Assembly (NCBI GenBank): GCA_037134495.1
Contig: JBAXMC010000003.1
Location: 1 to 33,150 of the forward strand
Length of the DNA: 33,150 bases
Direction of reading: 5' to 3'
From: Myxococcaceae bacterium
Lineage (GTDB): Bacteria > Myxococcota > UBA727 > JABDBI01
In this document: positions 3,872 to 31,303 of the stretch, piece after piece
Numbering within the stretch: position 1 is the stretch's first letter
Layout: every line of letters begins with the position of its first letter
Notes under the pieces: model-generated
What the model was told of the DNA's origin: nothing
The model's input: the letters and a program-made list of their open reading frames with translations, nothing else
Database searches by the model: none
Position numbers and translations under genes: made by a program

Positions 3872-3880
3872 AAACCACCT

Positions 3881-3955
3881 ATAACTTGTATCCAGTTAAA
3901 AAAATACATGTTAAAGCTTGTTTTGTCAATATATTTTAACAAGTTATGACTTGTT
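3881..3955 (-). promoter_or_regulatory. Sigma70-like promoter and inverted repeats (putative operators) of mobile mystery A
   Basis: Minus strand TTGACA(3929-3924)-N17-TATTTT(3906-3901); inverted pair ataacttgt (3881) / acaagttat (3939); imperfect palindrome aacaagttatgacttgtt 3938-3955. Confidence 0.55.
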
Positions 3956-4001
3956 CACCGGCAGACAAGCTCAGAAAAACTCAGCGCGAATTTTGAATTT
4001 C

Positions 4002-6074: not shown

Positions 6075-7100
6075 ATGCATCGTAATTGGCGAACATTAAT
6101 TCGGCCTAAAGGCTTAGTTGTTGACCGTGATGTCAGCGACAGCCGTTATGGCAAATTTGTATTAGAACCCCTAGAGCGTGGCTACGGTACTACTTTAGGT
6201 AACGCCTTACGCCGGACTTCACTCTCTTCTTTGCAAGGTTCAGCAATTACAGCGATCAAAATCGAAGGCGCTCAGCATGAGTTTACTTCTTTGCCTGATG
6301 TTAAAGAAGATGGCACTGAAATCGTTCTGAATCTGAAAGAAATCAATCTTAAGTTGCATGATGTCACTCACAAGTCCGCTCGGATTTCTAAAAAAGGTCC
6401 CTGTGAGATTCGCGCTAAAGACATTGAAGTAGATTCTTCGGTTGAAATCTTGGATCCTGAACAATACATCTGTACTGTTGCAGAAGGCGGCGTATTCAAA
6501 GCTGAGCTCACCATCAAAGGTGGCCGTGGCTATGTCCCTGCAGCTCAAATCAGAGATGAAGATCAGCCTGTCGGCACCATCAACATCGATGCTTTGTTCA
6601 GCCCTGTTCGCAAAGTGAACTACCACGTGACCAATGCTCGTGTGGGTCAACAAACCGATTATGATAAGTTGGTGATGGAAATCTGGACCAATGGGTCTGT
6701 GACTCCAGAAGACGCTTTGGGAATCTCTGCGAAGATCATGAAAGAACAGCTTTCAATCTTCATCAACTTCTCTGAAGATCTTGAACCCGTCTTGCCAGAA
6801 GCCACTCACCGTGTTGAGCGCCTCAATGATCATTTAAGCCGTACGGTTGAAGAACTCGAACTTTCAGTTCGATCTGCCAACTGTCTAGCTAACGCAAATA
6901 TTAGATTAATTGGTGATCTGGTACAAAGAAGCGAAAGCGAAATGCTCAAGACTAAGAATTTTGGTCGTAAGAGTCTCAAAGAAATCAAAGAAATCTTGGG
7001 CGAAATGGGCCTCTCATTGGGGATGCGAATCACCAACTGGCCTCCAAAACCAGGAACAACTCCGACTGCTACCCCTTCTGAATCGAGCGATGGAATCTAA
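6075..7100 (+). CDS. rpoA: RNA polymerase alpha subunit
   Basis: [36 protein letters not shown]. Confidence 0.98.
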
Positions 7101-7466: not shown

Positions 7467-7543
7467 GACGATGTAGCTCAGTTGGTTAGAGCGATGGTCT
7501 CATAATCCATAGGTCGGGGGTTCGAATCCCCCTTTCGTCACCA
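7467..7543 (+). tRNA. tRNA with CAT anticodon, probably elongator tRNA-Met (Ile2 not excluded)
   Basis: Acceptor GACGATG/TTTCGTC, D-arm GCTC/GAGC, anticodon loop CT-CAT-AA, T-arm GGGGG-TTCGAAT-CCCCC, encoded ACCA; paired 1-72 and no GGG/CCC anticodon stem, so not the initiator. Confidence 0.93.
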
Positions 7544-9991: not shown

Positions 9992-10603
9992 ATGCTTAAG
10001 TTTATTACTCTTATTTTGTCAGTTTTATTCCTTGTTGGCTGTCAAGCTCATGTGCAATTAAGCGCACCACCACTTGCTGATGCACCTATCAAAGAACGTG
10101 TAAAAGCCTACGATGAACTTAAGCCGATTGTTCACCGAGAACTCTACATTGTTAATGGTTATGGCGGAGTTTCTTCTAACTCAAGTTCGTTAACCCTTGG
10201 CAACGGACAGAGAATTTATCACCCAGAGGACCTCCTTCCTGTCGTGGGACCTAACAACAAATTCGCTGAATCAACTCAGCAATATTTAGAATACAACAGG
10301 CTTGGTACCACTTTCATGTGGTCTGGTCTTGGTGTAGAAATCCTAGGCACATCTTTGATGCTTGCTGGAATTCCTCGTTCATTTGGCCGCAACTCTGGTG
10401 AAATTGGTCCAACATTCGCCATTGGGGCAGGAATGGTCGTCCTGGGATTGGTTGGCGTTATAGTCGGTTATATCTTTGAGGCAAAATCAAGTGATTACAA
10501 AGCAAGCGCTTTTGATGTCTATGATTCCGTACTTTTGAAACGATTGGAATTAGCGCGCACTGGAACAAACACAGTGCTAGTTCCAACCAATCAAGTCGAG
10601 TGA
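9992..10603 (+). CDS. Hypothetical lipoprotein with two C-terminal hydrophobic segments
   Basis: Lipobox LVG-C; Gly-rich TM-like segments near the C-terminus. Confidence 0.75.
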   Translation: MLKFITLILSVLFLVGCQAHVQLSAPPLADAPIKERVKAYDELKPIVHRELYIVNGYGGVSSNSSSLTLGNGQRIYHPEDLLPVVGPNNKFAESTQQYLEYNRLGTTFMWSGLGVEILGTSLMLAGIPRSFGRNSGEIGPTFAIGAGMVVLGLVGVIVGYIFEAKSSDYKASAFDVYDSVLLKRLELARTGTNTVLVPTNQVE

Positions 10604-10998
10604 TTCAAAGCTGATTCCAGAATTTGCCCCAGCTCTCTTCTCAGGGCTGGGTCATCTAAAGCTTGACTTAAGGTATCCAGCAAGTCACTTGGACTCTGAG
10701 GTGCTGGCCTATATGGACCGGCAGCAGGCGTATCAACCCCGAAATAGTTAATCATATCAACGGCACAAATATTAGCTTGGAAAAGAGTGCCAATCGCTGA
10801 GCCAACACAGCCAATATACTGATACCAGCCGGGAAAGTTGCCAAAATAATAGCGAGGCGAAAGAGCTGGGCAATTACTCAACAACCCGAAAAGCTCTGCA
10901 AAAGTAATAGCACAATCACTGGCAACTTGCATTTTAGGTGGAGCATCTGCAAACGCGGGTGTTAAGCAAAGAAAAACACAAAACACACTGAGATGCAT
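10591..10998 (-). CDS. Hypothetical secreted protein
   Basis: Signal peptide ending TPAFA; four Cys in the mature part. Confidence 0.65.
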   Translation of the reverse strand: MHLSVFCVFLCLTPAFADAPPKMQVASDCAITFAELFGLLSNCPALSPRYYFGNFPGWYQYIGCVGSAIGTLFQANICAVDMINYFGVDTPAAGPYRPAPQSPSDLLDTLSQALDDPALRRELGQILESALNHST

Positions 10999-11053
10999 TA
11001 CCCATCAACTTTTCAAAACACAGGATTATTCCTAAGGAGTCCTACGTTTAAAC

Positions 11054-11350
11054 TTGGTGGTTTTGTTCGTTGTTATTTTCAGCTTTTTTTCACACCCCAG
11101 CTTGTCACAAGCACAGAATAATACTTCGTCTGCAACTCTGAACTATTATGGAGTAGGACCCTCGACCATACAAGCCGTTGTCGCAACGCTTTTAGCTCCC
11201 AATGCCTGCTATGTCGAAAGCCTTATCCAAACTGAATTTCGGATCAAATACAAAGCATGTGCTGCTATGGCACTTAACGCTGCCAATGCTTGGTACACTC
11301 TTGGTTGCAATGTTTGCAAACAATATGACTCAGACTGTTGGGGATGTTGA
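11054..11350 (+). CDS. Small secreted Cys-containing hypothetical protein
   Basis: Hydrophobic N-terminus ending SQA; six Cys; start uncertain (TTG). Confidence 0.55.
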   Translation: MVVLFVVIFSFFSHPSLSQAQNNTSSATLNYYGVGPSTIQAVVATLLAPNACYVESLIQTEFRIKYKACAAMALNAANAWYTLGCNVCKQYDSDCWGC

Positions 11351-11370
11351 TTTCTCAATTTCGTCCAGAT

Positions 11371-11886
11371 TTAAGTACTTGAGCAGGTTCCGGCTGTATC
11401 AACAAAGTGACAGTTGGGGTTATCGGCTTTTTCAAAGCACGTTTGATTAGCACCCTCCCCAGAACAGCAAAAATTAGATTTTGGATTAAAAGAACACTTG
11501 GAAGGATTTTTCTCATTGCATACGGGAAGAACAAACTCACAATTAGCATCAGTATTCGTACAACTCGTATCTGTCCCTGCACAACAGGCTGATTTAGCTG
11601 CATTAAGTGTACAGATAACAGATTGATTAAGAACACAAGCATCGGCAGAAGTAATTGTCCATATGCATTTCTTGTCTGAAAACGCCGATTCTGTGCAAGC
11701 AACCAAGTTCTTGATCTGTAAACACTGCGTATAAGCAACACACTTCTTCTCATTAGACCAGGTGCAAGCGCTAGCAGGACAGGTTGACTGTGTATACACG
11801 CCACAATGTAAGCTCTTATTATCGTAGCTCGTGTCACAGCCAACGAACATCAATCCCAGTAAAATAAGTGAGCAAAATAGTTTCAT
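11371..11886 (-). CDS. Cys-rich lipoprotein
   Basis: Lipobox FVG-C followed by 20 further Cys, with CxW/CxF motifs. Confidence 0.8.
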   Translation of the reverse strand: MKLFCSLILLGLMFVGCDTSYDNKSLHCGVYTQSTCPASACTWSNEKKCVAYTQCLQIKNLVACTESAFSDKKCIWTITSADACVLNQSVICTLNAAKSACCAGTDTSCTNTDANCEFVLPVCNEKNPSKCSFNPKSNFCCSGEGANQTCFEKADNPNCHFVDTAGTCSST

Positions 11887-12152
11887 GCAACTTACTTCAC
11901 CCGCTCACAAAAAATGTGCAAGAGCCTAAGGACAATGAATCTGCCGTGAGTGCTTGTGATACCTATTAATAAAACCTGTGTGAAGCGGACGTTTGGGGCT
12001 GGATGTCAGAGCAAGCTCAATCCAGAGCATTTTTACTGAAGCTGAGATTTTAGATTTGATGACGTGAAGGGGAACGCGTACGCAGCGGCTCATGATTGCT
12101 CCAATTGACAAACGTGGCCGTCGACATTATTTTTGTCTCGGCTCTAAAGGCT

Positions 12153-12195
12153 GCCGTTTCCTAACTCTTACCGGAATATGGAAACGGCTTTTTTT
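12153..12195 (+). terminator. Intrinsic-terminator-like hairpin
   Basis: gccgtttcc-N18-ggaaacggc followed by T7; loop unusually long. Confidence 0.5.
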
Positions 12196-12303
12196 GCAGA
12201 CACCATGTCTACAAGCAATCACTGTAAAACAGGCATATTCTAAAAAGCTATCGGATGAATGACCGATCCTGTGGAACCAACAACAGATTTCAAGAAATTA
12301 CTT

Positions 12304-12348
12304 TCCAACGTTTCAAACGTTTGATACACTAACGTTATGAACGTTGGA
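12304..12348 (+). promoter_or_regulatory. Symmetric array of four AACGTT palindromes around a TACACT -10 box and the start codon
   Basis: AACGTT at 12307, 12316, 12331 and 12340; TACACT 12325-12330; ATG 12337. Confidence 0.65.
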
Positions 12349-13656
12349 CAAATAAACCAAGCTCTTATGCAGGGGGAAATCCAGGCACAAGGTGTTCTAC
12401 CGCATCTCAATAATTTATCTTTAGCGCCATTCCAATTTGAAATTGATTTCGGACTACGAAAACTGCCCATAGAACCAGGCATCTTACTGATCCGTGGTGC
12501 CAGACAATACGGTAAAAGTACTTGGTTGGAGCAGCAGATTGCGGAAACCATTAAGGAGTTTGGAGCTGGTTCTGCTTTGTACTTAAATGGCGATATTCTG
12601 GCAAACAAAGAGCAATTGGTTTCTGAAATCCGCTTGGTTACTCAGTTTTTTCATCCAAAATCAAAAGTTAAACGTTTGTTCATTGATGAAATTACCGCTG
12701 TAGAAAACTGGGAAAAAGCCTTAAAATACGTAATCGATGCGGGCGAATTAATAGACGTGTTGGTGATCACAACAGGCTCCAAAGCTGCCGATTTACGTCA
12801 TGGGAGCGAACGACTTCCAGGTAGAAAAGGACGCTTGGCGCGGACCAATTATATTTTTACACCAATTTCTTATGCCGAATTCAAGAAACAATGCGGCGTG
12901 AAACTAGGAGATCAAACTTTAAATAGCTACTTACTTTCAGGTGGATCACCTATCGCAGCCTGCGAGCTTGCTCAAACCGGTCGACTTCCTGAATACATCA
13001 TTGAACTTGTTTCAGACTGGATTCTAGGTGAATTTACGGCTAGTGGTCGCACCCGTTCAGCATTGCTCAGCGTCATAAAAACCCTGTTTCAATTTGGAAC
13101 AAATCCCATCGGTCAGTCTAAATTAGCAAGAGAAAGTGGGCTCTCAAACAACACTGTAGCACTAGGTTACGTTGCTCTTTTGCAAGACTTACTCGTGCTC
13201 TGCCCTGCTTACCCTATCGATGGGAACAACGGCAAACCTCTATGGCGTCAACCTTGCAAGTATCATTTCATTAACACACTTGCAGCGATGTGTTGGCATC
13301 CAGAGGCCATCAGAACCCCTTATGCACTTCAAAACTCTCCTAAAGTACATAGTCACATGCTTGAGTGGGCTGTTGCTCAGGAACTATTTAGAAGACGCTG
13401 TCTGCTTGGTTTAGAACCTGTTCCAGAAGATATCTCATTTTGGCAATCTAAGACTCATGAAATTGATTTCGTTGCCTCTTTCCCAGATGATTGGATCGAG
13501 GTCAAAAGAGGAATTGAAGATCCTTTTCATTATCAATGGTTCCTGACGACACATCCAACCGGACGCCTGACTCTCATTAATCCAAATCGTTTCGAAACCA
13601 ATCGAATTCGAGGCATAACTCTAGAAGACTTCTTAATGGATCCATCTTGCATTTAA
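12337..13656 (+). CDS. AAA_14-type ATP-binding protein with DUF4143 / PD-(D/E)xK-like C-terminus
   Basis: Walker A GARQYGKST, Walker B FIDEI, TGS, GGSP, C-terminal EIDFV...IEVK. Confidence 0.85.
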   Translation: MNVGQINQALMQGEIQAQGVLPHLNNLSLAPFQFEIDFGLRKLPIEPGILLIRGARQYGKSTWLEQQIAETIKEFGAGSALYLNGDILANKEQLVSEIRLVTQFFHPKSKVKRLFIDEITAVENWEKALKYVIDAGELIDVLVITTGSKAADLRHGSERLPGRKGRLARTNYIFTPISYAEFKKQCGVKLGDQTLNSYLLSGGSPIAACELAQTGRLPEYIIELVSDWILGEFTASGRTRSALLSVIKTLFQFGTNPIGQSKLARESGLSNNTVALGYVALLQDLLVLCPAYPIDGNNGKPLWRQPCKYHFINTLAAMCWHPEAIRTPYALQNSPKVHSHMLEWAVAQELFRRRCLLGLEPVPEDISFWQSKTHEIDFVASFPDDWIEVKRGIEDPFHYQWFLTTHPTGRLTLINPNRFETNRIRGITLEDFLMDPSCI

Positions 13657-20154: not shown

Positions 20155-21546
20155 ATGTTTAAAACAATATTTTCAATACTATTGCTAACCACTCCGGTTC
20201 TTGCTCAGAACTTATTTAAGCACGAAAATCTTAAGTATCAAGGTCTTACAGAGCATGGCCTCTCTGAACTTAAGCAGATTCGAGACGCTTTGCGCCAACG
20301 TTTTGGACTGTTTGAACAAGAGTTCAAAGGCCTCTCCAATATACACCATGCAGCCACAGTGGCTCGTATGGCTAAAGCCAACATGTTCTTGTACGGCCCT
20401 CCAGGTGGTGCTAAGTCCATGCTTATTCAGTGGCTTTTTTCTGGAGAAGCAGAACCAGCTTTTCAGGTCCAATTACATCAAATGATGAGCGAACAAGCTT
20501 TTATTGGTGGCCAAAACTTTGAAGCTGCCAAAGAAGGACGTTTCGTATTAAACACTGAAAGCAGTTTGGCTAATTTCAGAGTCGCTCTTTTGGACGAAGT
20601 AGAAAAAGGAAACCCTGCGACACTCGCAGCTCTATTGAGTCTATTAAACGAACGTAAAGTCTTGGCAGGTAATCAGGTATTTGACGCCAAAACAGAGACT
20701 GTTTTCGCAACCAGTAACGCAAACTTGCCTGAATTTTTTTTGCAGTTCCTAGAATCCGGTCAGCGTTCAACAGCCCCTGCTTTATTAAACCGATTCCAAT
20801 TTAAGGGTTTTATGTACAACTGGTTGTCAGCGAATGACCAAGCTGATTTGGATGCCAGACGCGAGAAAAAAGCACTTTGCAAAATTTTTGAGACTTGCGC
20901 TAACGATGCTGTTTTCTTAACACCTCATCAACTAGATTGGGAAAAAATGCGTTCTTTTGCAAAAGTACTTTTTGTGAAGAGCTCATTTTTTAACACTGCT
21001 TACAATGAAATGGCTAATTTGCTACGCGACTCTACCAACAATGCTGTACGTGAATCAGAACTCAAACATCAGAAAGATCGATATAACGAACCTTTCGTTT
21101 ATTTCCCATCTTGCGATTGGACTGAGCGTTTACGTCAGCAAATCCCAGATGCAGTGCAATACTCAGCACTGGTTGATTTCCTTTTATCATCTTGGGCTGA
21201 TGACGCAAATCTTGAGAAAATGACGCGTAAACAACGTGAACTCGGACCCTACTCTTTGTGGCGTGCTTTCTTGATTACGACAACGCCTGGACCAGGAAAA
21301 GCTCAGTTAGAGTTAGACGGCGAAAAAATGAATATTAATTTTGGAACGCTTATTAATGCAGAGAAAGCTAGAGACGTGCGTGAGCAACGCATGATCCAAA
21401 ACTTGCTTGATGAACAAAATCGATTTAAAAGTGTTTATGTAAGTTTGACTGAAAAGTTCCAAGAATCGATCAAAAATGCAGCCAAATTTAGTTCTAACTC
21501 AGATGAATCCAATCAAGACTTTGAATTTTTAGTCATGAAGAAATAA
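20155..21546 (+). CDS. RavA/MoxR-type AAA+ ATPase with N-terminal signal peptide
   Basis: Walker A GPPGGAKS, Walker B LLDEVEKG, LLSLLNERK, ATSN, ALLNRF; N-terminus MFKTIFSILLLTTPVLA-Q. Confidence 0.85.
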   Translation: MFKTIFSILLLTTPVLAQNLFKHENLKYQGLTEHGLSELKQIRDALRQRFGLFEQEFKGLSNIHHAATVARMAKANMFLYGPPGGAKSMLIQWLFSGEAEPAFQVQLHQMMSEQAFIGGQNFEAAKEGRFVLNTESSLANFRVALLDEVEKGNPATLAALLSLLNERKVLAGNQVFDAKTETVFATSNANLPEFFLQFLESGQRSTAPALLNRFQFKGFMYNWLSANDQADLDARREKKALCKIFETCANDAVFLTPHQLDWEKMRSFAKVLFVKSSFFNTAYNEMANLLRDSTNNAVRESELKHQKDRYNEPFVYFPSCDWTERLRQQIPDAVQYSALVDFLLSSWADDANLEKMTRKQRELGPYSLWRAFLITTTPGPGKAQLELDGEKMNINFGTLINAEKARDVREQRMIQNLLDEQNRFKSVYVSLTEKFQESIKNAAKFSSNSDESNQDFEFLVMKK

Positions 21547-21548
21547 TT

Positions 21549-24500
21549 ATGAAGAATTTTATCTTAATCTGGGCACTGGCCTTGCCAGTGCTTTCAAGTA
21601 CACCTGCCCAGCTGATCTCTCAGTATGAAAACGACTTGTTTCCATACACGGATCCGTTTGTTCGCGTTCAAAATCTTGAACAAGGTCAGTTGATTTTTGA
21701 CAAGCTCAAGACATTTAAGCCGTTAGCGCTTGTGTCTGATGCCCTGGTTACGTTTCATTCACGGTCTGTAGAACCAGATGCAAACATGATCCAGTTTGTG
21801 ATGGAGCAAACCGAAAAAGTGATTACTTCAAGCGGTTATAGCAAGCTAGAAAAGCAATCTAACTTGCTAGCTTTGTATTACTTGCGCGATTACTTAAGTC
21901 GTTTTGAACAAAAAGAAGCTGTCGATCGTGATGGTGTTCAAGCAGGCGAAAACAAGAAAAAACAGGATCCAAAGCATCCTGAGATGCCAGAAGAATATAA
22001 ACCAACCACCAAAGACACAGAAAAAGATAAGGAACCAGGCAGCAAGGATGAACAAGTTGTTATCTTAGAAACCAATTTTGCAACCCCTTATTTGGGTCAA
22101 CGAACTTATGCAGAAGTCGTTCGGCATGCTGCTGCGCCTTTTAAAAGCATTGAATTGCCTACACAATTGCCTACGCCAGAGGCTTATAAAAACACCGGCA
22201 AAGAAATGTCAGTCTACATGCTTGGTGAAACAGAAATCACATTGTTTATCCCTCCAGGATATGAACCCAGACAACCTGAAGATTCTCGCGCTCGAATTAC
22301 ACGAAGCTCCAAGGGTGCCTATCACTTAAAAGTTTCAGAAGTTCTGCTCTTGGTAACAATTCCACTACAACCAACAAGCTCCCATAACCTCAGCCCTGTT
22401 TTGCATGAAATCTACACAAGACCTGTTGGTTTTCTAGACTCAGAATGGCCAGCGTTAATTCGCAGTGATTTATTTGACAAGAAATTCTCAAATTCTTTAA
22501 CCACCGCAGAAGCTGTAAGTAAGCACTTGGCAACAAAATATCTATACAGTGTTGGAGCAAGACCAGAAACAGACCCTGTCGACGCCCTCAACGCCGGTGC
22601 TTTTCAGTGCGATATGGCAGCTTATTTAATGGTCGGCATTTTACGCGATGTTTACAAAATCCCATCTCGTGTTGTTTCAGGCTATCGCGCTAAAAAACAT
22701 GGCAATGGTAAAAATCAAAGAAGTTACTTGGTCTTGCCAGGTGATGCTCATGCTTGGGTAGAAGTCTATGACAATGGCATCTGGCGCCCCATGGATCCAA
22801 CGCCTATTCTAAAAGACAAAGAGAAAGAGGACGAAGAGAAAGGCGAAAAAGATGAATATTCAGATCGGGAATTGGAAGATCAGCCTAAACCTGAATCGAA
22901 AAACCTCACCCCTAACCCCTCTCCACCAAGTGGAGAGGGTAATAAATCTGAAACCAGCGCTGGGAATTCCACTTTATCTATGGATTCTGAAGAACTAGCC
23001 AGCATGTTAACGCTCGGATCTTTGGAACTAAACCCTTCTGAAGACAGCGATCCACTTAGAGACAGAGCCATTCGCGTATTGCTGCGTTTAATTTTGGACC
23101 CAAATCTAGACGGCGTCAAAACTTACGAAAGGCTTTATCAATCAAGACAGCTATTTTTATCTATCTCGGAGCTCAAAAGCTTGGTTCAAGAATTGCTGGT
23201 AATTCATGAGAAGAAGCACCCTAATCTAAAAACTTGGTTGGAAGATATTTTGGTCTTTTTAGACCAGCGTGATTTGCCCACCACTTATCAAAATATTTAT
23301 CGCATCAAAAAATCTTTAGAGCTTTATGCAAAGCTCTTGGACAAAAACATGCGCTACCCAAGCGAGTTATTGGACCAGTTAGACGGTATTTTGCGAGACA
23401 TCTATGGACTTTCACACAGTGATTCAGCCGAAATAGCCATGGTCGCTGAATTCTATGATTCACTGCCTTCTTTGGTTCAAACACTGCTTGCTCAGCAATA
23501 TGGACTGATTCGAGTAGGCCCCAATGCGCCAACCAAAGAAGTTGCGAGGCTTTTAAAAGGTGGAACTCTCAATGATCTTAAGTTATTGGCCATTTTATCG
23601 CCTCTGACAGAGTTTATTTTGAATTCAACCCCTCGACCAGAATTCGAAGAAGTCAGAACTTGGACTCGGGATTCACGGCGATTAATGGGCAATGATTTGT
23701 TACCTCTGAATAGATTTTCAGATCTAACACGTTCGCTCATTACCAAACCAGGTCAAGATCTAGAAAAAAACTTAAGAGAAGGCAACATCTATACTCGCAC
23801 ACATCGTCAACGAATCGATGTACCAACTGGGTTTGGTAAAGATGATGCAGAACGTATTACGATTGTTTTGTATGACACTTCAGGCAGTATGTATGGAGAC
23901 CCTGAGCGTTTCCAGGCCGGCCTCATTTCTGCGTTTACAGCACGTGCTTTGAGTGATTTGGCACCCAGCGGAGCACATCGACATCGTATTGTCTTGGTGC
24001 CTTTTGATGATAAACCTGGCAACCCTGTTAAAGTTACGAATACCCAAGAAGCGCTGGATATTATCCATAATTACCGTTCTAAATTAGCCAATACTGCTGG
24101 CGGAACTGATATTCAAGCAGCTTTGATTCAAGCAATGGCCTTGATTGCTGATGCTGAACGTCGTTCAGGAGAGCCGCTAGCTGCTGCCAATATTATTCTG
24201 ATGACAGATGGCCAGTCACCACTTGATATTCCTAAGTTGGCAGAAGCCAGAAGCGCTATTGACAGAACAACACCTCTACAAATCATGTTTGTGGCCATTG
24301 GAACCAGCAATGATGAGTTGGTTAAATTCGTACAAGATTCTGAAAAAGCAGGCATCGAGACGGGTTTTTATCGAGAGTTTAATTCGGGTCTCATGAGCGA
24401 ATATATGAAAAAAGCGGATGCGCCTCCCGCACAAGGCTCTGCGGATAAGATTTACACAGAGAAAACATCTAGAGATTTGAGTCCGCAAACTCGAAACAGT

Positions 24501-24848
24501 TTAATTCAGGCGCTGCAATTAATGTCTGAGTTTTCATTGCAAGTACAACAGGCTTCTACTTATACAGCTTCGCAAGAACATTTGAGAGCATTAGAAACCA
24601 GCACTTGGAGCAAACCCGAATCTGTTGCACGTCCGTTACAAGTCTGGATCCAAAATCTGCGTCGTATGGCTTATGGACAGGTATTTAGGTCAGATTTGCC
24701 ACTGAGAGCTCAAGTCGCAGATGATATCTGGAAGCACTTTGACAAACTCACAGGTGTTTCAATGCAGCATTTGAGCCAAAACGAGTGGACCGAATTAAAA
24801 CATTATTATTGCCACGCGGCTGCCCTAGGAGCTTTAGGATGCCCATAA
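21549..24848 (+). CDS. Signal-peptide-bearing transglutaminase-like + vWA (ViaA-like) domain protein
   Basis: Triad FQC...HAWVEVY...MDPTP with IPSRVVSGY; MIDAS DTSGSM, GGTDI, LMTDG; N-terminus MKNFILIWALALPVLS. Confidence 0.85.
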   Translation: MKNFILIWALALPVLSSTPAQLISQYENDLFPYTDPFVRVQNLEQGQLIFDKLKTFKPLALVSDALVTFHSRSVEPDANMIQFVMEQTEKVITSSGYSKLEKQSNLLALYYLRDYLSRFEQKEAVDRDGVQAGENKKKQDPKHPEMPEEYKPTTKDTEKDKEPGSKDEQVVILETNFATPYLGQRTYAEVVRHAAAPFKSIELPTQLPTPEAYKNTGKEMSVYMLGETEITLFIPPGYEPRQPEDSRARITRSSKGAYHLKVSEVLLLVTIPLQPTSSHNLSPVLHEIYTRPVGFLDSEWPALIRSDLFDKKFSNSLTTAEAVSKHLATKYLYSVGARPETDPVDALNAGAFQCDMAAYLMVGILRDVYKIPSRVVSGYRAKKHGNGKNQRSYLVLPGDAHAWVEVYDNGIWRPMDPTPILKDKEKEDEEKGEKDEYSDRELEDQPKPESKNLTPNPSPPSGEGNKSETSAGNSTLSMDSEELASMLTLGSLELNPSEDSDPLRDRAIRVLLRLILDPNLDGVKTYERLYQSRQLFLSISELKSLVQELLVIHEKKHPNLKTWLEDILVFLDQRDLPTTYQNIYRIKKSLELYAKLLDKNMRYPSELLDQLDGILRDIYGLSHSDSAEIAMVAEFYDSLPSLVQTLLAQQYGLIRVGPNAPTKEVARLLKGGTLNDLKLLAILSPLTEFILNSTPRPEFEEVRTWTRDSRRLMGNDLLPLNRFSDLTRSLITKPGQDLEKNLREGNIYTRTHRQRIDVPTGFGKDDAERITIVLYDTSGSMYGDPERFQAGLISAFTARALSDLAPSGAHRHRIVLVPFDDKPGNPVKVTNTQEALDIIHNYRSKLANTAGGTDIQAALIQAMALIADAERRSGEPLAAANIILMTDGQSPLDIPKLAEARSAIDRTTPLQIMFVAIGTSNDELVKFVQDSEKAGIETGFYREFNSGLMSEYMKKADAPPAQGSADKIYTEKTSRDLSPQTRNSLIQALQLMSEFSLQVQQASTYTASQEHLRALETSTWSKPESVARPLQVWIQNLRRMAYGQVFRSDLPLRAQVADDIWKHFDKLTGVSMQHLSQNEWTELKHYYCHAAALGALGCP
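22903..22939 (+). repeat. Intragenic palindromic repeat, copy 3 (encodes [12 protein letters not shown])
   Basis: 22901-22945 matches 8361-8405 at 43/45 nt. Confidence 0.95.
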
Positions 24849-26032
24849 TATTTTTATTCTTACTCAGTCTATCTCTTCAAGCCGAGCTCTCGCCCATAGA
24901 CAATTATTTTGGATTGATCGGTGAGCAGCTGGAACAAAAAATCCTGAACGATGAGCATTTATTGCGCATGATCGCTGCCGCTGAACAGGGCAAGATTATT
25001 AACCCGATTACAGAACAAGAAGCTGCGATTAATCTACAGCGAGCAGTTGCTAAGCAAGTTTTGGATCAAATTATTGAGGATTGCTCTGAGCACACGCGAA
25101 TTATCCCCTGGGCAACGGAGCGCCTCAGCGAGCAAGCACGCGAAGATAAAGAAAAGAAGCAAAAACAAGAAGAGACAAAGAAACCTTGGAAGGTTCAAAA
25201 AAATCAAAAATTAAGCTTAGGTCAATATTACACTTGCGCAATCACAGCGGAAGGTATCGCCAAATGCTGGGGATTTGATTACAGAGCTCAAACCATTGTT
25301 CCTGCTGATTTAGGCATCGTTCAGAGTATCTCTTCTGGCGCACAGCATAATTGTGCAATCACAACCCAACACGAAGTCAAATGCTGGGGAGATAATATTG
25401 CTGAACAGACAAATATCCCTTCCGATTTAGGCTTTGTTCAGAGTATTTCTGCTGGTCTGGATCATACTTGTGTCATCACAACTGAAGGAGCAGCCAAATG
25501 TTGGGGAACCATTATGTATGGTATAACAAAGATTCCACTAGATTTAGGCATCGTTCAAAGTATTTCCACTGGTGGATACTATACTTGCGCACTGACAGTC
25601 GAAGGAACAGTCCGATGCTGGGGAGATAAGGAAATGGATCAAAGCAAAGTTCCTGAAGACTTAGGCACCGCTCAAAGCATTGCCACTGCGAGTAATCATG
25701 CTTGCGTACTCACAGTTGCAGGAAGAATTAAATGTTGGGGAGACAACAGATACGGTCAAACTGATGTTCCAGCCGATTTAGAAACTGTTCAGAGTATTGC
25801 TTTAGGTTGGGGCCATACTTGCGCGGTCAAAAACGATGGCACAGTCAAATGCTGGGGAGATAATAGTGACGGTCAAACCCATGTCCCTCCAAATCTAGGA
25901 ATCGTTCAAAGTATCGCTGCTGGGGCAGATCACACTTGCGCCATCACAGCCGATAGCACACTCAGATGCTGGGGGAATAACGAAGTGGGTCAACTCAACG
26001 TCCCTGAAGGTTTAAGGGTAGCGGTGGATTAA
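24839..26032 (+). CDS. Secreted RCC1/BLIP-II-like repeat protein A (7 x 39 aa)
   Basis: ATG 24839 with AGGAG, overlapping the vWA gene stop; signal peptide ending SLQA; seven HTCA...KCWG repeats; 397 aa. Confidence 0.9.
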   Translation: MPIIFLFLLSLSLQAELSPIDNYFGLIGEQLEQKILNDEHLLRMIAAAEQGKIINPITEQEAAINLQRAVAKQVLDQIIEDCSEHTRIIPWATERLSEQAREDKEKKQKQEETKKPWKVQKNQKLSLGQYYTCAITAEGIAKCWGFDYRAQTIVPADLGIVQSISSGAQHNCAITTQHEVKCWGDNIAEQTNIPSDLGFVQSISAGLDHTCVITTEGAAKCWGTIMYGITKIPLDLGIVQSISTGGYYTCALTVEGTVRCWGDKEMDQSKVPEDLGTAQSIATASNHACVLTVAGRIKCWGDNRYGQTDVPADLETVQSIALGWGHTCAVKNDGTVKCWGDNSDGQTHVPPNLGIVQSIAAGADHTCAITADSTLRCWGNNEVGQLNVPEGLRVAVD

Positions 26033-26063
26033 TATCTCAAATGTATTGAACCCGGACAAAGAG

Positions 26064-26092
26064 TTGACAAATTATGGACTATGATGTATTAA
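26064..26092 (+). promoter_or_regulatory. Sigma70-like promoter of the antitoxin-mazF pair
   Basis: TTGACA-N17-TATTAA upstream of ATG 26108. Confidence 0.5.
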
Positions 26093-26107
26093 TTAATAGA
26101 GCTGACT

Positions 26108-26350
26108 ATGAATACGAATGCAAGAACAGTGAATGCGACCTTCTCTCTCCCGGTGGAGGTTTACACTCTTTTACATGGCTTCGTTGAAAAACGAGGTTTG
26201 AGTCGATTTGTCAGCGAAGCGATCCAAAACGCATTGCAGTCGAAACAGAATAATTTGCGCCAGGCTTATCTTGAAAATAACCAAGATGAATTGATGCAGC
26301 GTGAGTTGAAAGATTGGGATAATATACAGACAGAGGGGTGGGATGAGTGA
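26108..26350 (+). CDS. Putative antitoxin (ribbon-helix-helix, MazE-like role)
   Basis: ATFSLP...SRFVSEAI...LRQAY, acidic C-terminus; overlaps the toxin start. Confidence 0.8.
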   Translation: MNTNARTVNATFSLPVEVYTLLHGFVEKRGLSRFVSEAIQNALQSKQNNLRQAYLENNQDELMQRELKDWDNIQTEGWDE

Positions 26351-26678
26351 TTTTCCGAAAAGAGGCGATATTTACTCGGTTAATTTAGATCCAACGGTTG
26401 GCTCAGAAATCCAGAAAACGAGACCCGCTTTGGTTATCTCAAATGACGCTGGAAATGAACTCACTAGTCGTATTATCATAGCACCCATTACATCGTCGGC
26501 AGCCAAAAACTATCCTTTTCAGGTTGTGATTGAACTCAATGGTAAAGCAAGAAAAATATTATTGGATCAAATCCGGACAATTGATAAACAGAGACTCAAA
26601 AATAGAATAACGACTGTTTCTCGTTCAACCATGACTTTGGTTGAAAAGGCCATTAAGATTTCATTGGCTTTATCGTAG
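26343..26678 (+). CDS. mazF: PemK/MazF-family mRNA interferase toxin
   Basis: KRGDIYSVNLDPTVGSEIQKTRPALVIS, APITS, DQIRTIDKQRL. Confidence 0.93.
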   Translation: MSDFPKRGDIYSVNLDPTVGSEIQKTRPALVISNDAGNELTSRIIIAPITSSAAKNYPFQVVIELNGKARKILLDQIRTIDKQRLKNRITTVSRSTMTLVEKAIKISLALS

Positions 26679-26686
26679 GCAACCAC

Positions 26687-26732
26687 TACGGTCAAACCGA
26701 TGTCCCTGATGGTTTAAGGGTAGCGGTAGATT
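26687..26732 (+). repeat. Orphan copy of the RCC1 gene 3' end (YGQTDVPDGLRVAVD)
   Basis: Matches the ends of both RCC1 genes (GQLNVPEGLRVAVD at 25988-26029; YGQTNVPEGLRVAVD ending at 30433). Confidence 0.92.
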
Positions 26733-26796
26733 GGCCATCACGGTGTTTTTCATGAGCTGGCTTGTCTTAATTTCTTTGTTGTCATAGATAGGATAC

Positions 26797-27192
26797 ATGG
26801 GAATAGATATTCGTTGGCAACAACGGTTACAGAATTTTGAAAAGGCTTATGCAGAGCTTCATGCTGCTTGTCAGAGAAAAAAATATTCAAAACTTGAAAG
26901 AGGCGGTCTCATACAAGCATTTGAGTTCACTTTTGAATTGGCTTGGAAAACACTTCAGGATTTACTGATTAGTCGAGGTTACGAAGTACGTGGTCCAAGA
27001 CCTGTTATAGAGCAAGCATTTCAAGATGGTCTTATTGTAAAGGGCGAAGATTGGGCCAAAATGCTGCTTAGCCGAAATCTAACAGCACACACTTACAATC
27101 AAGATACAGCTGAAAATATCGCTCAATCAATTAAAGCACACTATGAACCTTTGTTTGGCGATCTCATCAAAAAACTGCATCAAGAGAAATAA
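26797..27192 (+). CDS. HEPN protein (HI0074-family nucleotidyltransferase substrate-binding protein)
   Basis: RWQQRLQNF, GLIQAFEFTFELAWK, RNLTAHTY (R-x4-H). Confidence 0.92.
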   Translation: MGIDIRWQQRLQNFEKAYAELHAACQRKKYSKLERGGLIQAFEFTFELAWKTLQDLLISRGYEVRGPRPVIEQAFQDGLIVKGEDWAKMLLSRNLTAHTYNQDTAENIAQSIKAHYEPLFGDLIKKLHQEK

Positions 27193-27199
27193 TAAAACC

Positions 27200-27499
27200 A
27201 TGCACTCTGGATTATCTCAGGCCGTATTTGAAAAAATTTGCCAAGCTTTAAAAAAGAATCCCAAGCTTAAGAAAGTCTACTTATTTGGTTCAAGAGCTAT
27301 GGGAAGGCACAAACCAGGTTCAGATATCGATTTAGCAGTAGATGGTATTGAACTGTCTTTTGATGATATTTTATCCATGAGATTGGATTTGGACCGTTTA
27401 ATGCTTCCCTATAAATTTGACATTGTGAACTATGCAGAAGCCGATCCGGCACTATTAGAGCATATCAAAAGGGTTGGCGTGGAAATAATCCACCTTTGA
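27200..27499 (+). CDS. Minimal nucleotidyltransferase (MNT)
   Basis: LFGSRAMG...GSDIDLAV, LPYKFDI, HIKRVG; probable ATG at 27200. Confidence 0.92.
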   Translation: MHSGLSQAVFEKICQALKKNPKLKKVYLFGSRAMGRHKPGSDIDLAVDGIELSFDDILSMRLDLDRLMLPYKFDIVNYAEADPALLEHIKRVGVEIIHL

Positions 27500-27502
27500 C
27501 TT

Positions 27503-27555
27503 TGACTATGAATACGAATGCAAAAACAGTGAATGCGACCTTCTCTCTCCCGGTG
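27503..27555 (+). repeat. Truncated duplicate of the antitoxin 5' end
   Basis: 52/53 nt identical to 26103-26155, exactly 1400 bp downstream. Confidence 0.95.
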
Positions 27556-27565
27556 ACTGAAGAAA

Positions 27566-28807
27566 TTACCGCAAAGCTTCTTCGCGTTGTTGTTTTAAAA
27601 AAGGTCTATCAATCTGTTCAGCCAGCATTTCAATATCGCTTCGAGTGACACCACAGGCCATAAAATGCTCTTTCCAAAGATTCACAGCTTTAGCAACGAT
27701 AGAAATCTCAGTCGCAGCTTGATCTTTTGTAAGTCCAAACATGGAGCAGAGCGACATTGCATTGCTGAGCGTTGAATCAGCTTCCTCTAAGCCAACACGC
27801 ATTTGTTGATAACCCAGCGCTTGTCCCGAAGGAAGAACATCGTAAGCTGGAGATAACTCATATTGCTGCGATTCGTTCACTAAAAGCGCATGATTCTTTT
27901 CATGGTCATCCGTATTATCGATCAAAATATTGAACACCATGCGACGAAACAATTCTCGCATTTGCTGAATATTAATATCGTCGGCAGTGACACCACGTCT
28001 GCGCAATAACAGAGCCAGTTCCGGATACCCAAAGCGTTCTTCTGCAGCTTGAAGTGCGACTCGCGCAGAAAGAGCATGCACTCGTCTATTTGCAATACGA
28101 TCAAAGCGTTTGATTGCAACAGCATGACCATAAGTCGTACGAATTGGTATCGTTTGAGCAACACAGATGGCCGCCTGAGAAGCCAACGTCATGGAAGCAT
28201 GTTCAATAAGCGGTGTATCTATAGGTTCGCCGTCCGAAAATTTAATTACCCAAGGTTCACCCTCAATGTTTAGCAAAGCCTTAGGTCTGGCTCCTCCCAA
28301 ACTAACACCAGGAGAAATTAGACGTTTTTGCTCTTCTGGAATTGATTCGTTTGCTAATACTTTTCTCACCAGCTCTTGCATGGCAGCTACATCACCTAAA
28401 ACAGGCAACGGACTTGCATGGCAAGGCTCATATTTTTCATTGGATACCGAGACTCCAAGCGCACCAAATCGGTCATCTCCTGCAAAATACAGATATTCAA
28501 GAAGCGACAAGCGAAGTGGCTTATCCAAAACGCGGATAACTTGTTCTCCCCATCGATCTGGTCTGGCATCATCTACTGCACCTGGAGCTGTATCTTTCTC
28601 AACCGGAAAGAATTCATCTGGGCCGTTCAAGGGAAGATCTTCGCTGACGCCAAACCCATGCTCTCTCCATGATTTTGCATAACGCAATGAAACCCCACGC
28701 GGGTTGCGCATCAGGTTAAGCTCACCAATCAGTTTTGGATTTTCAGGCTGAGTGAGCATCCAAAGAAACAATTGATCCACTGGTTGGTAAGAACTATGTC
28801 GACTCAT
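27566..28807 (-). CDS. hipA: HipA-family kinase toxin
   Basis: PDRWG, SLGGARPKA, KRFDR, NTDDHEKNH, LSPAYD. Confidence 0.93.
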   Translation of the reverse strand: MSRHSSYQPVDQLFLWMLTQPENPKLIGELNLMRNPRGVSLRYAKSWREHGFGVSEDLPLNGPDEFFPVEKDTAPGAVDDARPDRWGEQVIRVLDKPLRLSLLEYLYFAGDDRFGALGVSVSNEKYEPCHASPLPVLGDVAAMQELVRKVLANESIPEEQKRLISPGVSLGGARPKALLNIEGEPWVIKFSDGEPIDTPLIEHASMTLASQAAICVAQTIPIRTTYGHAVAIKRFDRIANRRVHALSARVALQAAEERFGYPELALLLRRRGVTADDINIQQMRELFRRMVFNILIDNTDDHEKNHALLVNESQQYELSPAYDVLPSGQALGYQQMRVGLEEADSTLSNAMSLCSMFGLTKDQAATEISIVAKAVNLWKEHFMACGVTRSDIEMLAEQIDRPFLKQQREEALR

Positions 28808-29135
28808 TTGTTTTTTTCCTCAGTGAACGCCGTCTTTTGATCTCACGGACATGCAGCTCGAGTGCACCTCGGTCATATTGAGGGTTTGCCAACTCAGCAA
28901 GCGCTTCTGTACGACCTATCATCCAAAGAGCTGTGGCATAGATGCCCATGCCGACACCTGAATCACCCTGCTCCATCCGAATCAACGTAGGAACCGATAC
29001 ACCAAGGCGCTTGGCCCACACACGCTGTGATTCATGACGCCGCATCCGCGCAACAGCCAAATCTTCCCCAAGCCGTTTCAAGGCATCGAAAGCTCTAGGA
29101 GGAAGCGAAGAGAGCGCAAGCGGAGACTTTGGCAT
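28794..29135 (-). CDS. XRE-family HTH protein (HipB-like antitoxin)
   Basis: LGEDLAVARMRR...AKRLGVSVPTLIRMEQGD; overlaps the hipA start. Confidence 0.88.
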   Translation of the reverse strand: MPKSPLALSSLPPRAFDALKRLGEDLAVARMRRHESQRVWAKRLGVSVPTLIRMEQGDSGVGMGIYATALWMIGRTEALAELANPQYDRGALELHVREIKRRRSLRKKTNEST

Positions 29136-29142
29136 AACATAG

Positions 29143-29170
29143 ACTTTATCAAAATAGAAAATTTAGTCAA
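29143..29170 (-). promoter_or_regulatory. Sigma70-like promoter of HTH-hipA (probably leaderless)
   Basis: Minus strand TTGACT-N16-TAAAGT, then 7 nt to ATG; no SD. Confidence 0.55.
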
Positions 29171-29208
29171 GTTTATATGTTCAATTCTCTCCAAAGCCAG
29201 CCATCGCA

Positions 29209-29236
29209 TTGACTTTCTTGTTATAAGATATATAAA
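29209..29236 (+). promoter_or_regulatory. Possible promoter of RCC1 protein B
   Basis: TTGACT-N16-TATAAA, then 6 nt to ATG 29243; no SD. Confidence 0.45.
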
Positions 29237-29242
29237 ACAAAC

Positions 29243-30436
29243 ATGTTCAAAGTTATCTTACTCTTACTCAGCCTCTCTCTCCAAGCGCAGCTCGCGCCTA
29301 TAGACAACTATTTGGGTTTGATCGGTGAACAACTTGAGCAAAAAATCCTGAACGATGAGCATTTGCTGCGCATGATTGCTGGCGCCGAGCAGGGCAAAAT
29401 TATTAACCCGATTACCGAACAAGAAGGCAGGATTAACTTACAGCGAGAAGTTTCCAGACAAGTTTTGGAGCAAATTATTCCGGGCTGTTTAGATGCTTCG
29501 CAGATTATCCCTTGGGTAACGGAGCGCCTGAGCCAGCAAACACGCGAACGCAAAGAAAAGAAGCAGAAACAAGAAGAGACCAAGAAACCCTGGAAAATTA
29601 AAAAAAACTCTATACTCTCTGCCGGTTATGTAAACAGTTGCACCATTCATACCAATGGTTTGCTCGAATGCTGGGGAGATAATTATTATGGTCAAACCAA
29701 CGTCCCTATCGATTTAGGACCTGTTCTGAGTGTTGCTGCAGGAGGTTATCACACCTGCGCCATCAAAGCCGATGGCACAGTCAAATGCTGGGGCAATAAT
29801 GGAAACGGTCGAAGCGAGGTCATCACTGATTTAGGACCTGTTCAAAGCATAGCTGCAGGCCACTATCATACTTGCGCCATCAATATTGATGGATTGCTCA
29901 AATGTTGGGGAAACAATGATAAAGGTCAAACCGATGTCCCCGCTGATTTAGGACCTGTTCAAAACCTCGCTGCAGGCTACTCTCATACTTGCGCCATCAA
30001 TATTGATGGATTGCTCAAGTGTTGGGGAAACAAGGGACAGGATCAAAGCGATGTCCCCACTGATTTAGGACCTGTTCAGATTATCGCCACAGGACATTTT
30101 CACACCTGCGCCATCACAGCAGAAGGGACAGTCCGATGCTGGGGTGATGATAGAAACGGCCAAACAAATGTCCCAGACGATTTAAGAGCTGTTCAAAGCC
30201 TCGCTGCAGGCCATTCTCATACTTGCGCCATCAATATTGATGGATTGCTCAAGTGTTGGGGAAACAATGAAAGTGGTCAAACGAAAGTTCCCGCTGATTT
30301 AGGACTTGTTCTAAGCATCGCTGTAGGCGACTATCATACTTGCGCCATCAATATTGATGGATTGCTCAAGTGTTGGGGAAACAATGGATATGGTCAAACC
30401 AACGTCCCTGAAGGTTTAAGGGTGGCGGTGGATTAA
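29243..30436 (+). CDS. Secreted RCC1/BLIP-II-like repeat protein B (paralog of A)
   Basis: Same length (397 aa), near-identical N-terminal domain, seven 39-aa repeats with a 117-nt period. Confidence 0.92.
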   Translation: MFKVILLLLSLSLQAQLAPIDNYLGLIGEQLEQKILNDEHLLRMIAGAEQGKIINPITEQEGRINLQREVSRQVLEQIIPGCLDASQIIPWVTERLSQQTRERKEKKQKQEETKKPWKIKKNSILSAGYVNSCTIHTNGLLECWGDNYYGQTNVPIDLGPVLSVAAGGYHTCAIKADGTVKCWGNNGNGRSEVITDLGPVQSIAAGHYHTCAINIDGLLKCWGNNDKGQTDVPADLGPVQNLAAGYSHTCAINIDGLLKCWGNKGQDQSDVPTDLGPVQIIATGHFHTCAITAEGTVRCWGDDRNGQTNVPDDLRAVQSLAAGHSHTCAINIDGLLKCWGNNESGQTKVPADLGLVLSIAVGDYHTCAINIDGLLKCWGNNGYGQTNVPEGLRVAVD

Positions 30437-30903
30437 TTTTGGCAGTTTTGTCGCATGGCCTCGAACACAAAAACGGCTGCACATTGAGCCAGATTTAAAG
30501 ACCTTATAGGCCCTGGTTGGGGCAATGTCAGAATCCGGTCACGATAAATGTCTTGGACTTCCTTTAAAACACTCGCTGTTTCAGGACCTAGAACCAATAC
30601 GTCGCCAGGTTCTATGTTTGCTTCCCAAGGCGCTTTAGAACCCCCTACTTCGATAATCCAAGGGTCTTTCCCTAAGAGTTTTAAGCACCGAAATATATCC
30701 TGGTGAAAATGAACGCGTGCACCTTCAAAATAATCTAGGCCAGCACGCCATTTGGTTTTGTCATTTTGCTCAAAAACCAGAGGGCCACAAATATGTAAAG
30801 CCACCTCTGTTCCAGCGCACAGCCTAACAATAGAAGCGATATTGGCAATAATGCGCGGCCTATCTAAAACCAGATGCAACCAAGGATCATTGAGCAGATT
30901 CAT
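30433..30903 (-). CDS. trmL: tRNA (cytidine(34)-2'-O)-methyltransferase, SpoU family
   Basis: PRIIANIASIVRLCA, RAGLDY, LGPET, RSLNLA, EAMRQ. Confidence 0.88.
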   Translation of the reverse strand: MNLLNDPWLHLVLDRPRIIANIASIVRLCAGTEVALHICGPLVFEQNDKTKWRAGLDYFEGARVHFHQDIFRCLKLLGKDPWIIEVGGSKAPWEANIEPGDVLVLGPETASVLKEVQDIYRDRILTLPQPGPIRSLNLAQCAAVFVFEAMRQNCQN

Positions 30904-30922
30904 ATCAAGGCTTTATAGCTGA

Positions 30923-31303
30923 TTAGAACTCAGTCTCATAAGCTTCTTTTCGTTTACTCCAGCTTGAATGCAACAAGACACTTAATTTGTGGTCTGTTAC
31001 TGTAATTTTAACGCAATCTCCCCAATCAAGTGTCTTAAACTCAACTTGAGCTGATTTTTTCTTGTCATGCAGCTCAGCATGGCATGTAAATTTTGTACCT
31101 GGCTCAGGGAAACCCAACCCGTCTCCCCAACCCAAATCATATTGCTCAAAATGGCTTTTAGCATTCTGCGTATCCAACTGAGCCTTAAAAGAAACTCCAT
31201 ATACTTTGGGGTCTGTGCTTGTACAAACTAAATCAACTTTATGAAGATTCATTCGTGGCATCCCAGCAGGATCTGCTAGTATCTCCGCACTCCGCATGAA
31301 CAT
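30923..31303 (-). CDS. Hypothetical protein, 5' end possibly frameshifted
   Basis: 126-aa ORF filling the gap; an out-of-frame ATG at 31343 (MKLLACC) and a signal-like LATFYVHA in a third frame. Confidence 0.45.
   Translation of the reverse strand: MFMRSAEILADPAGMPRMNLHKVDLVCTSTDPKVYGVSFKAQLDTQNAKSHFEQYDLGWGDGLGFPEPGTKFTCHAELHDKKKSAQVEFKTLDWGDCVKITVTDHKLSVLLHSSWSKRKEAYETEF

Follow-up and report, generated by a model that had tools for sequence, protein, structure and literature searches.

How toxin-antitoxin modules and other small defence modules move outside phages, plasmids, transposons and integrons is poorly understood. The 33,150-nucleotide (nt) window analyzed here raises this question. 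It is the entire contig C3 (JBAXMC010000003.1) of the metagenome bin G000 (assembly GCA_037134495.1; 1.99 Mb, 270 contigs, 43% GC, 96% complete, 3% contaminated), which belongs to a Myxococcaceae bacterium. Between two paralogous RCC1 beta-propeller genes, RCC1-A and RCC1-B, it carries three toxin-antitoxin modules in a stack, and both junctions between the modules hold a short copy of the end of a neighboring gene. Were the modules added serially with gene ends as anchors, as the original prediction proposed, and by what route? On balance, we lean towards a small defence or addiction island in a beta-propeller array, in which host recombination added three self-contained cassettes that bring no integrase with them, and the gene-end copies are the footprints.

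Three modules and two gene-end copies

Open reading frames (ORFs) and family profiles revealed three intact modules between RCC1-A and RCC1-B: an RHH antitoxin with MazF, HEPN with a minimal nucleotidyltransferase (MNT), and HTH with HipA. All six toxin-antitoxin genes were full length against their profiles. The stack between RCC1 paralogs that had been read from the letters alone held in its coordinates, and its genes were confirmed by profiles. The inserts at the locus were 0.6-1.6 kb long and contained only toxin-antitoxin domains according to Pfam. The GC content of the cassettes was 38-47%, compared with 43% for the genome.

The first of the two scars is an orphan RCC1 3′ end, R′ (26678-26732, forward strand). 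Its gene-attached counterpart, R, is the 3′ end of RCC1-A (25988-26030, forward strand; repeat family D3, from the alignment). The core of the orphan (26690-26732) was 86% identical to the RCC1-A end and 87-88% identical to the RCC1-B end. The orphan had been predicted at 26687-26732; it is real, and the in-frame similarity extended back to 26678, a G that is also the last base of the mazF stop codon. In R′, TGG stands at the position of the stop codon TAA of RCC1-A and RCC1-B, and the reading frame continues into a seven-codon tail with a stop of its own. Together, R and R′ bracket the mazEF cassette with 43-55 nt at 86% identity.

The second scar, M5′ (27503-27555, forward strand), repeats the start of the antitoxin gene, namely 5 nt of upstream sequence and 16 codons. 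Its source is M5, the native antitoxin 5′ end (26103-26155, forward strand), and 52 of the 53 bases were identical (blastn-short E 2.7e-20 against the 2-Mb genome), as the prediction of a 53-nt copy had it. M5′ lies 3 nt past the MNT stop codon and 10 nt before the hipA stop codon, while R′ begins at the mazF stop; the predicted closeness of the scars to stop codons was thus borne out. Neither native flank accompanies M5′: the promoter spacer is missing on its left and the remaining antitoxin gene on its right, so it is not a simple target duplication.

The repeats were unique to the locus and not dispersed. The genome holds two copies of the M5 type and three of the R type, all of the latter at this locus (the RCC1-A end, the RCC1-B end and R′) because of the RCC1 paralogy. 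The exact 27-base pattern of the RCC1 end had no match in the metagenome contig collection. Along the contig the four copies are interleaved, in the order R, M5, R′, M5′. Two independent target-duplicating insertions cannot produce this order, as they would give nested or separate pairs of repeats.

As the original prediction had also stated, we found no integrase, insertion sequence or attC. Contig C3 gave no match to the Phage_integrase or tyrosine recombinase families, and no transposase or integrase turned up among the window ORFs scanned with Pfam. A search of 24700-30500 yielded one weak, distant inverted repeat and none resembling attC, although no dedicated attC model was used.

Could this structure be an artefact, a chimera of co-occurring strains joined through short repeats? 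The bin is divided into 270 contigs with 3% contamination, some 55-nt repeats at contig ends look like assembler overlaps, and a variant strain is present in one sequencing run (X5). When public contigs were aligned to 24000-31000, those of the probable source run, X1, broke at the 31-nt identical core of the 53-nt repeat, and nowhere else. However, a single X1 contig (26126-27554) runs from within mazE through mazF, the orphan and HEPN-MNT to the antitoxin copy. Two contigs from other samples also span critical points without any difference: a 151-nt contig of run X2 (26081-26231) covers the first 53-nt copy and both of its flanks, and a 177-nt contig of run X3 (26613-26789) covers the junction between the mazF stop and the orphan. 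The depths of the three X1 contigs were equal (9.3, 10.2 and 9.7), and together with the assembly of the window itself they support the junction from M5′ to hipA. In addition, a chimera formed through a common word would show that word once, not twice. Misassembly had been named in advance as one outcome that would overturn the prediction; as public contigs of three samples cover either the mazF/orphan junction or the first copy of the antitoxin end, the structure is not misassembly, and we give an artefact only a very slight chance.

The variant strain of run X5 was 95-99% alike and had the same junction between RCC1-A and the antitoxin gene, but unrelated sequence started exactly after the mazF stop (26677/26678). 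The 24 letters after mazF in this strain had no match, with up to 3 mismatches, either in G000 or among 20 further family genomes. The divergence directly after the stop codon marks the right end of the mazEF cassette as a true breakpoint between strains.

Islets bracketed by gene ends in the genome and its relatives

We compared every contig with itself to survey direct repeats of 24-200 nt, at least 80% identical and 150-8000 nt apart on the same contig. Among the 51 pairs in the genome, 19 were judged to be of the islet type, namely 18 gene-end pairs and the 53-nt antitoxin pair. The other 32 were set aside: 6 touched contig ends, several of them with a length of exactly 55 nt; 14 had both copies inside ORFs; 3 linked RCC1-A with RCC1-B; 2 belonged to retroelements; and 7 were unclear or unexamined. 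Exact 55-nt repeats at the ends of contigs C109 (6467-6521) and C135 (1-55) resembled assembler word overlaps, and such repeats should be excluded from a repeat census of this bin.

Besides the stack locus, 17 selected islets in the 2-Mb genome are bracketed by direct repeats of 25-85 nt. The usual plan consists of the 3′ end of a flanking gene, a compact cassette and that end once more as an orphan. In 16 of the 18 gene-end pairs, one copy lay no more than 32 nt from the stop codon of the flanking gene that faces the islet, and the orphan copy was often 0-13 nt from the stop of the outermost cassette gene. Of random 40-nt windows, 230 of 5000 (4.6%) overlapped a stop codon; this criterion is narrower, so the comparison is a rough one. 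The duplicated ends came from single-copy genes, such as trpS, a sigma-factor gene, bamA, brnQ, a GHMP-kinase gene, two doxX genes and apbC. In the trpS islet (3065-4046, reverse strand), which lies in the window itself, the orphan (3065-3100) and the gene-attached copy (4011-4046) share 33-36 nt at 89-91% identity and enclose an HTH_3 gene and two small ORFs. The original prediction suspected that the logic of this islet recurs throughout the genome, and the survey agreed: 18 of the 51 direct-repeat pairs were of the gene-end type, two of them with empty sites in congeners.

The cargo of the islets was mostly toxin-antitoxin or defence-like: AbiEi, a MazE-like protein, HicB with a 57-amino-acid (aa) partner, HipB/HipS/HipT, ParDE, DUF2442, DUF2281, DUF4258, an Eco29kI restriction-modification pair and two AAA ATPases. 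We take the three DUF families to be linked to toxin-antitoxin systems. Four islets carried other or unknown genes. A further stretch of the window, between leuS and asd (9992-13656), contains three ORFs without a family match and an AAA_14 ATPase, and no flanking repeat was found around it. An ATPase of this kind is also cargo of the C54 and C74 islets, so the stretch may be another islet.

Empty sites were found for two islets. At the C19 hicAB islet, the flanks adjoin in the congener G002, where the flank matches overlap by 40 nt and both 40-nt copies of G000 align to one copy. The other is a hipBST islet (C27, 8803-10266), which encodes HipB, a HipS-like protein (the HipA N-terminal domain alone, 103 aa) and a HipT-like protein (the kinase domain alone, 307 aa) between the copies of a perfect 27-nt duplication. 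Its empty site was present in G002 (39-nt overlap of the flank matches) and in the congener G001 (21 nt), and apparently, judging by spacing, in the relative G008. In the gene-attached copy, about 15 bases before the 27 perfect ones resemble the native gene tail but differ from it, a hint that this cassette arrived together with the diverged gene end of its donor.

A serial array was found in the relative G005 (L019, G005:C32, 3658-7692), where the 30-nt end of an FtsJ-like methyltransferase gene is present four times. The extra copies were 97%, 77% and 87% identical to the gene-attached one. A Sel1-repeat gene, a DUF3592 gene and hipBA make up the three cassettes bounded in this way, and behind each of them stands an orphan of that end; the reading frame of hipA ends inside the last copy. 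This hipBA module was 69% identical to that of the stack. The hipBA locus of another relative, G011, had no flanking repeats.

Beyond these genomes, we surveyed 80 reference-genome loci with mazF relatives for direct repeats of at least 22 nt and at least 85% identity within 2.5 kb. Among the 42 loci with full flanks, repeats bracketed the mazEF homologues at 8, compared with 0-2 of 42 at eight mock positions, and one locus (L041) was interleaved too. Metagenome loci gave another picture, with 2 of 16 bracketed and 1-4 of 16 at mock positions, which is no enrichment. As the two samples disagree, the wider generality of repeat-bracketed cassettes is uncertain.

Candidate routes of cassette gain

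The nearest precedent for the islets, one that the original prediction did not mention, is the insertion of restriction-modification gene complexes with long target duplication, reportedly described by Nobusato et al. in 2000. In a later comparison of filled and empty sites, restriction-modification units without mobility genes were flanked by repeats longer than 30 bp (Furuta, Abe and Kobayashi 2010, PMC2853133). According to the accessible text of that paper, the repeats often overlap the 3′ end of a neighboring gene, with overlaps of 15 bp and 2 bp given in the legend of its Figure 3. The islets share with this process short selfish units without mobility genes, site-unique direct repeats of tens to hundreds of bp, and the alignment of both repeats to one copy in a related genome (here at C19 and C27). 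The same footprint is present at about 17 sites other than the stack, two of them with empty sites in congeners, and the inserts of the stack are likewise shorter than 20 kb and without a mobility gene.

The islets differ from the published cases in several respects. Their cargo consists of toxin-antitoxin pairs and ATPases, with restriction-modification in one case only, so that the break-making enzyme proposed as the cause in PMC2853133 is absent here. About 18 sites in 2 Mb make for a high density, one gene end was reused serially in G005, and the repeats at the stack are interleaved, one of them being the 5′ end of a gene. A 2013 review of the same group (PMC3874152), as far as its accessible text goes, ascribes long duplications to restriction-modification systems only. 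We found no paper on such insertion for toxin-antitoxin modules in the open-access literature searched; subscription journals were mostly outside this search, which is not proof of absence. The stack is a variant of a known but poorly understood kind of insertion.

If host recombination adds self-contained toxin-antitoxin cassettes at gene ends, the target duplication would keep the host gene whole in a tightly packed genome. At the stack this might have happened in two ways. The promoter-antitoxin-mazF cassette (26031-26677) may have entered at the RCC1 gene end and left R′, in which case M5′ would be the remnant of an older mazEF copy behind HEPN-MNT. Alternatively, 26678-27555 may be one contiguous piece of 878 bp from an allelic arrangement RCC1 - HEPN-MNT - mazEF, pasted after mazF. 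This single event would explain both scars, as the two ends of the piece, and their interleaved order; it would also account for the tail and stop peculiar to R′ and for the antitoxin start 8 nt after the MNT stop. A single imported allelic fragment, or the relic of a second mazEF copy, fits the data better than two simple insertions. Either way, the repeats could then offer RecA short homologies for the stacking, loss and exchange of cassettes.

Several observations weigh against this account. A true target duplication starts identical, but R and R′ share only 86% of their bases and R′ lacks the stop codon common to RCC1-A and RCC1-B. The repeat pairs are interleaved and M5′ has no native flank. 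The allelic arrangement needed for the one-fragment version was seen nowhere. No empty site was found for the stack locus: the congeners G001 and G002 had no match to the vWA protein encoded on its left, the other relatives showed no synteny downstream of the stack, and the trmL neighbors in six relatives were not syntenic. Searches for empty sites were also uninformative for the C10, C2, C78, C54 and C74 islets, where the relatives had other genes or the flank was missing; those stretches of G002 and G001 that correspond to the C10 site contained no direct repeats. The lack of enrichment among the metagenome loci points in the same direction, and the literature consulted offers no established mechanism for long target duplications either. 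For the trpS islet, the search was likewise uninformative.

The main rival is that the scars were left by deletions in a tandem array. The ancestor would have carried RCC1-A, mazEF, a third RCC1 gene, HEPN-MNT, a second mazEF, hipBA and RCC1-B, and two deletions would have trimmed the third RCC1 gene and the second mazEF. As long as one toxin-antitoxin copy is kept, the loss of a second does no harm. The relatives offer some support, as orthologues of the vWA gene (49-61% aa identity) are followed by RCC1 genes in G005, G008, G011 and G014. There are one to four of these in tandem directly after the vWA gene (four in G008, at least two in G005 and G014), and R′ could therefore also be the relic of a lost paralogue. 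Its about equal distance from the RCC1-A and RCC1-B ends and its own tail agree with this. G008 has no toxin-antitoxin genes between its RCC1 genes. Behind an intact RCC1 gene, G011 carries a nucleotidyltransferase module of two genes, after which comes a degraded, frameshifted RCC1 3′ end.

Against these points, the deletions would need one endpoint precisely at the mazF stop codon and another pair that cut the second antitoxin gene down to 53 nt from either side. The part that survives in G000, as in G011, is the very 3′ end. About 16 other orphans copy single-copy genes, including trpS, the sigma-factor gene, bamA, brnQ and the GHMP-kinase gene, and so cannot be relics of paralogues. The origin from one duplicated RCC1-mazEF unit, which we also considered, was rejected for the unequal identity of the two repeat pairs (86% for R/R′ and 98% for M5/M5′), which speaks against a recent duplication. 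We therefore regard deletion scars as unlikely, though they deserve to be taken seriously.

Site-specific recombination in trans appeared improbable to us. In this explanation, integron-like or Xer-like cassettes would be moved by a recombinase encoded elsewhere that acts on sites within the repeats. Seven tyrosine recombinase genes are indeed present elsewhere in the genome, the cassette borders are sharp, and the four-copy array of G005 resembles a cassette array. However, the window contig has no recombinase gene, the targets are whatever gene end is at the site, and the repeats at the 18 sites vary in sequence and in length (25-85 nt). By eye, the repeats of the islets shared no motif, core or inverted-repeat structure, which argues against one site-specific recombinase.

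Ku-based end joining was rejected as an origin, because no Ku gene was found in the 96%-complete genome. With no integrase match on the contig, no Ku and no shared motif by eye, a host-driven route is more likely than an element-encoded one. One candidate host process is homology-facilitated illegitimate recombination during natural transformation, known in Acinetobacter and Streptococcus pneumoniae, in which one homologous anchor guides foreign DNA and the other end joins without homology. By analogy, the gene end might serve as the anchor here, and no element-encoded enzyme would be needed; ComEC and DprA are present in the genome, as in most control genomes. This process usually deletes rather than duplicates recipient DNA, and it is not known to be linked to cassette arrays. 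For the proposal of serial accretion with gene ends as anchors, these results cut both ways: the hotspot, the genome-wide signature and the serial array of G005 support it, while the interleaved repeats, the absence of a shared motif and the missing flanks of M5′ do not fit the anchor mechanism.

The stacked genes, their host locus and what the islets may mean

The antitoxin of the first module (26108-26350, forward strand; 80 aa) is MazE/RHH-like, with matches below the cut-off to both NCBIfam MazE (E 3e-4) and Pfam RHH_6 (E 0.057). It was not found in a search of 20 other genomes of the family. Its gene overlaps by 8 nt with mazF (26343-26678, forward strand), which encodes a PemK-family toxin (PF02452 E 3.8e-33, covering 1-109 of 109 profile positions; also NCBIfam MazF). 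A full-length toxin of the PemK/MazF fold with a small overlapping antitoxin gene upstream qualifies as a predicted type II MazEF pair, toxicity and neutralization being predictions likewise. The closest relatives of MazF among the reference genomes were 59-62% identical, the best of them in Babeliales and Rickettsiaceae bins, and a protein scan of metagenome contigs gave a best relative of 58% identity. As no near-identical mazF cassette was found in the reference genomes, the cassette borders cannot be defined in that way.

The spacer upstream of the antitoxin gene (26034-26107, forward strand; GC 32%) contains, by eye, TTGACA (26064-26069) and TATTAA (26087-26092) with a 17-nt gap. A consensus promoter scan of 25900-29400 did not list this site, and its counts were not above those of shuffled sequences (4 promoter-like sites for 7.2 expected; 6 terminator-like ones for 3.2). 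One weak terminator-like hairpin overlapped the hipA stop codon.

The second module appears to be a HEPN-MNT (type VII) toxin-antitoxin pair. Its HEPN gene (26797-27192, forward strand) belongs to the HI0074 family (PF08780, NTase_sub_bind, E 1.2e-36; TIGR01987), and RNLTAH in the translation fits the Rx4-6H motif. The MNT gene (27200-27499, forward strand) encodes an MntA-like minimal nucleotidyltransferase (PF18765, Polbeta, E 6e-20; NF047752), in which GS, 10 residues and DID follow the GSx10DxD motif. HEPN comes first here, the reverse of the order in MntA-HepT.

The third module, on the reverse strand, is by its domains a probable HipBA pair. The hipA-family kinase toxin (27566-28807) matched HipA_C (E 5e-41, positions 1-208 of 213) and weakly Couple_hipA. 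The HipB-like HTH antitoxin partner (28794-29135), with a weak HTH_31 match, lies upstream with a 14-nt overlap. HipA was 73% identical to its G005 copy at the aa level, and the HTH protein was 69% identical to the product of the gene upstream of hipA there.

On either side of the stack stand RCC1-A (24785-26032, forward strand; RCC1_2, E 2.8e-62) and RCC1-B (29243-30436, forward strand; RCC1_2, E 1.2e-64), whose first 300 nt are 80% identical. They form the right part of a set that begins with a MoxR-type AAA+ ATPase gene (20155-21546, forward strand; Pfam bpMoxR PF20030, E 6.8e-18, 64.9 bits against a cut-off of 27) and continues with the conserved left anchor of the locus, a vWA protein with a transglutaminase-like domain (21549-24848, forward strand; Pfam Transglut_core and VWA_2). 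MoxR-vWA-beta-propeller ternary systems are described as predicted conflict systems in the accessible text of Kaur et al. 2020 (PMC7159879). Like these, the set combines a bpMoxR-type ATPase and a vWA protein with propeller proteins whose N-terminal region is variable. In the systems of PMC7159879 the propeller is carried by the vWA protein itself, and RCC1 was not among the text matches in that paper. Judging from its domains, the set (20155-26032 and 29243-30436) looks like such a ternary conflict system, so that the toxin-antitoxin stack would sit inside a defence-type locus. This likeness bears on the host locus, not on the scars.

Some other features were seen in passing. A search of Rfam with the whole window matched a tRNA at 7467-7540 and nothing else. 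Three ORFs contain a 45-nt element that has a palindromic core: an oxidoreductase gene (2103-2147), leuS (8361-8405) and the vWA gene (22901-22945). Within the vWA gene the element stays in frame and encodes a peptide rich in proline and serine. Dozens of copies with 84-100% identity were present in G002, G008 and G011. The element resembles the in-frame palindromic elements of Rickettsia. Elsewhere in the genome there are two diversity-generating retroelements, on C66 (2580-2703 / 6652-6775) and C112 (3479-3593 / 4201-4315), whose variable and template repeats apparently differ mainly at template A positions. Both encode a reverse transcriptase, and an Avd-like gene accompanies the one on C66. 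Their targets contain Lcl_C domains, and one of them, of 1129 aa, carries a eukaryote-type kinase and a FYVE finger.

What would such islets mean? That this footprint surrounds cassettes without a DNA-cutting enzyme, at many sites in one small genome and again in a sister genus, points to a general route driven by the host. The islets form a compact natural system for its study, with two proven empty sites, one four-copy array and one interleaved mosaic. They are also of use in annotation, as short orphan gene ends by stop codons can mark cassette borders.

A bolder idea, which we hold doubtful, is that the copied ends of host genes serve as attachment sites, portable and private to each site. 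The whole would in effect be an integron that lacks an integrase, from which cassettes might be looped out and re-inserted by RecA, stacked behind others at one gene end and swapped between strains. With chromosomal integron arrays the islets share compact cassettes, promoter-poor or self-promoted, head to tail by a fixed point, frequent toxin-antitoxin cargo and a repeated element after each cassette. They differ in that this contig has no intI and no attC-like imperfect palindrome, and in that the repeated element is the end of a local host gene, another one at each locus. In searches made without a dedicated attC model, the stack showed neither intI with attI beside the array nor attC at the 3′ end of each cassette. 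If the idea were true, the interleaved scars would record a single allelic piece of this kind that was pasted next to its homologue, and small-genome lineages would keep an exchangeable pool of toxin-antitoxin and defence cassettes at the ends of many housekeeping genes.

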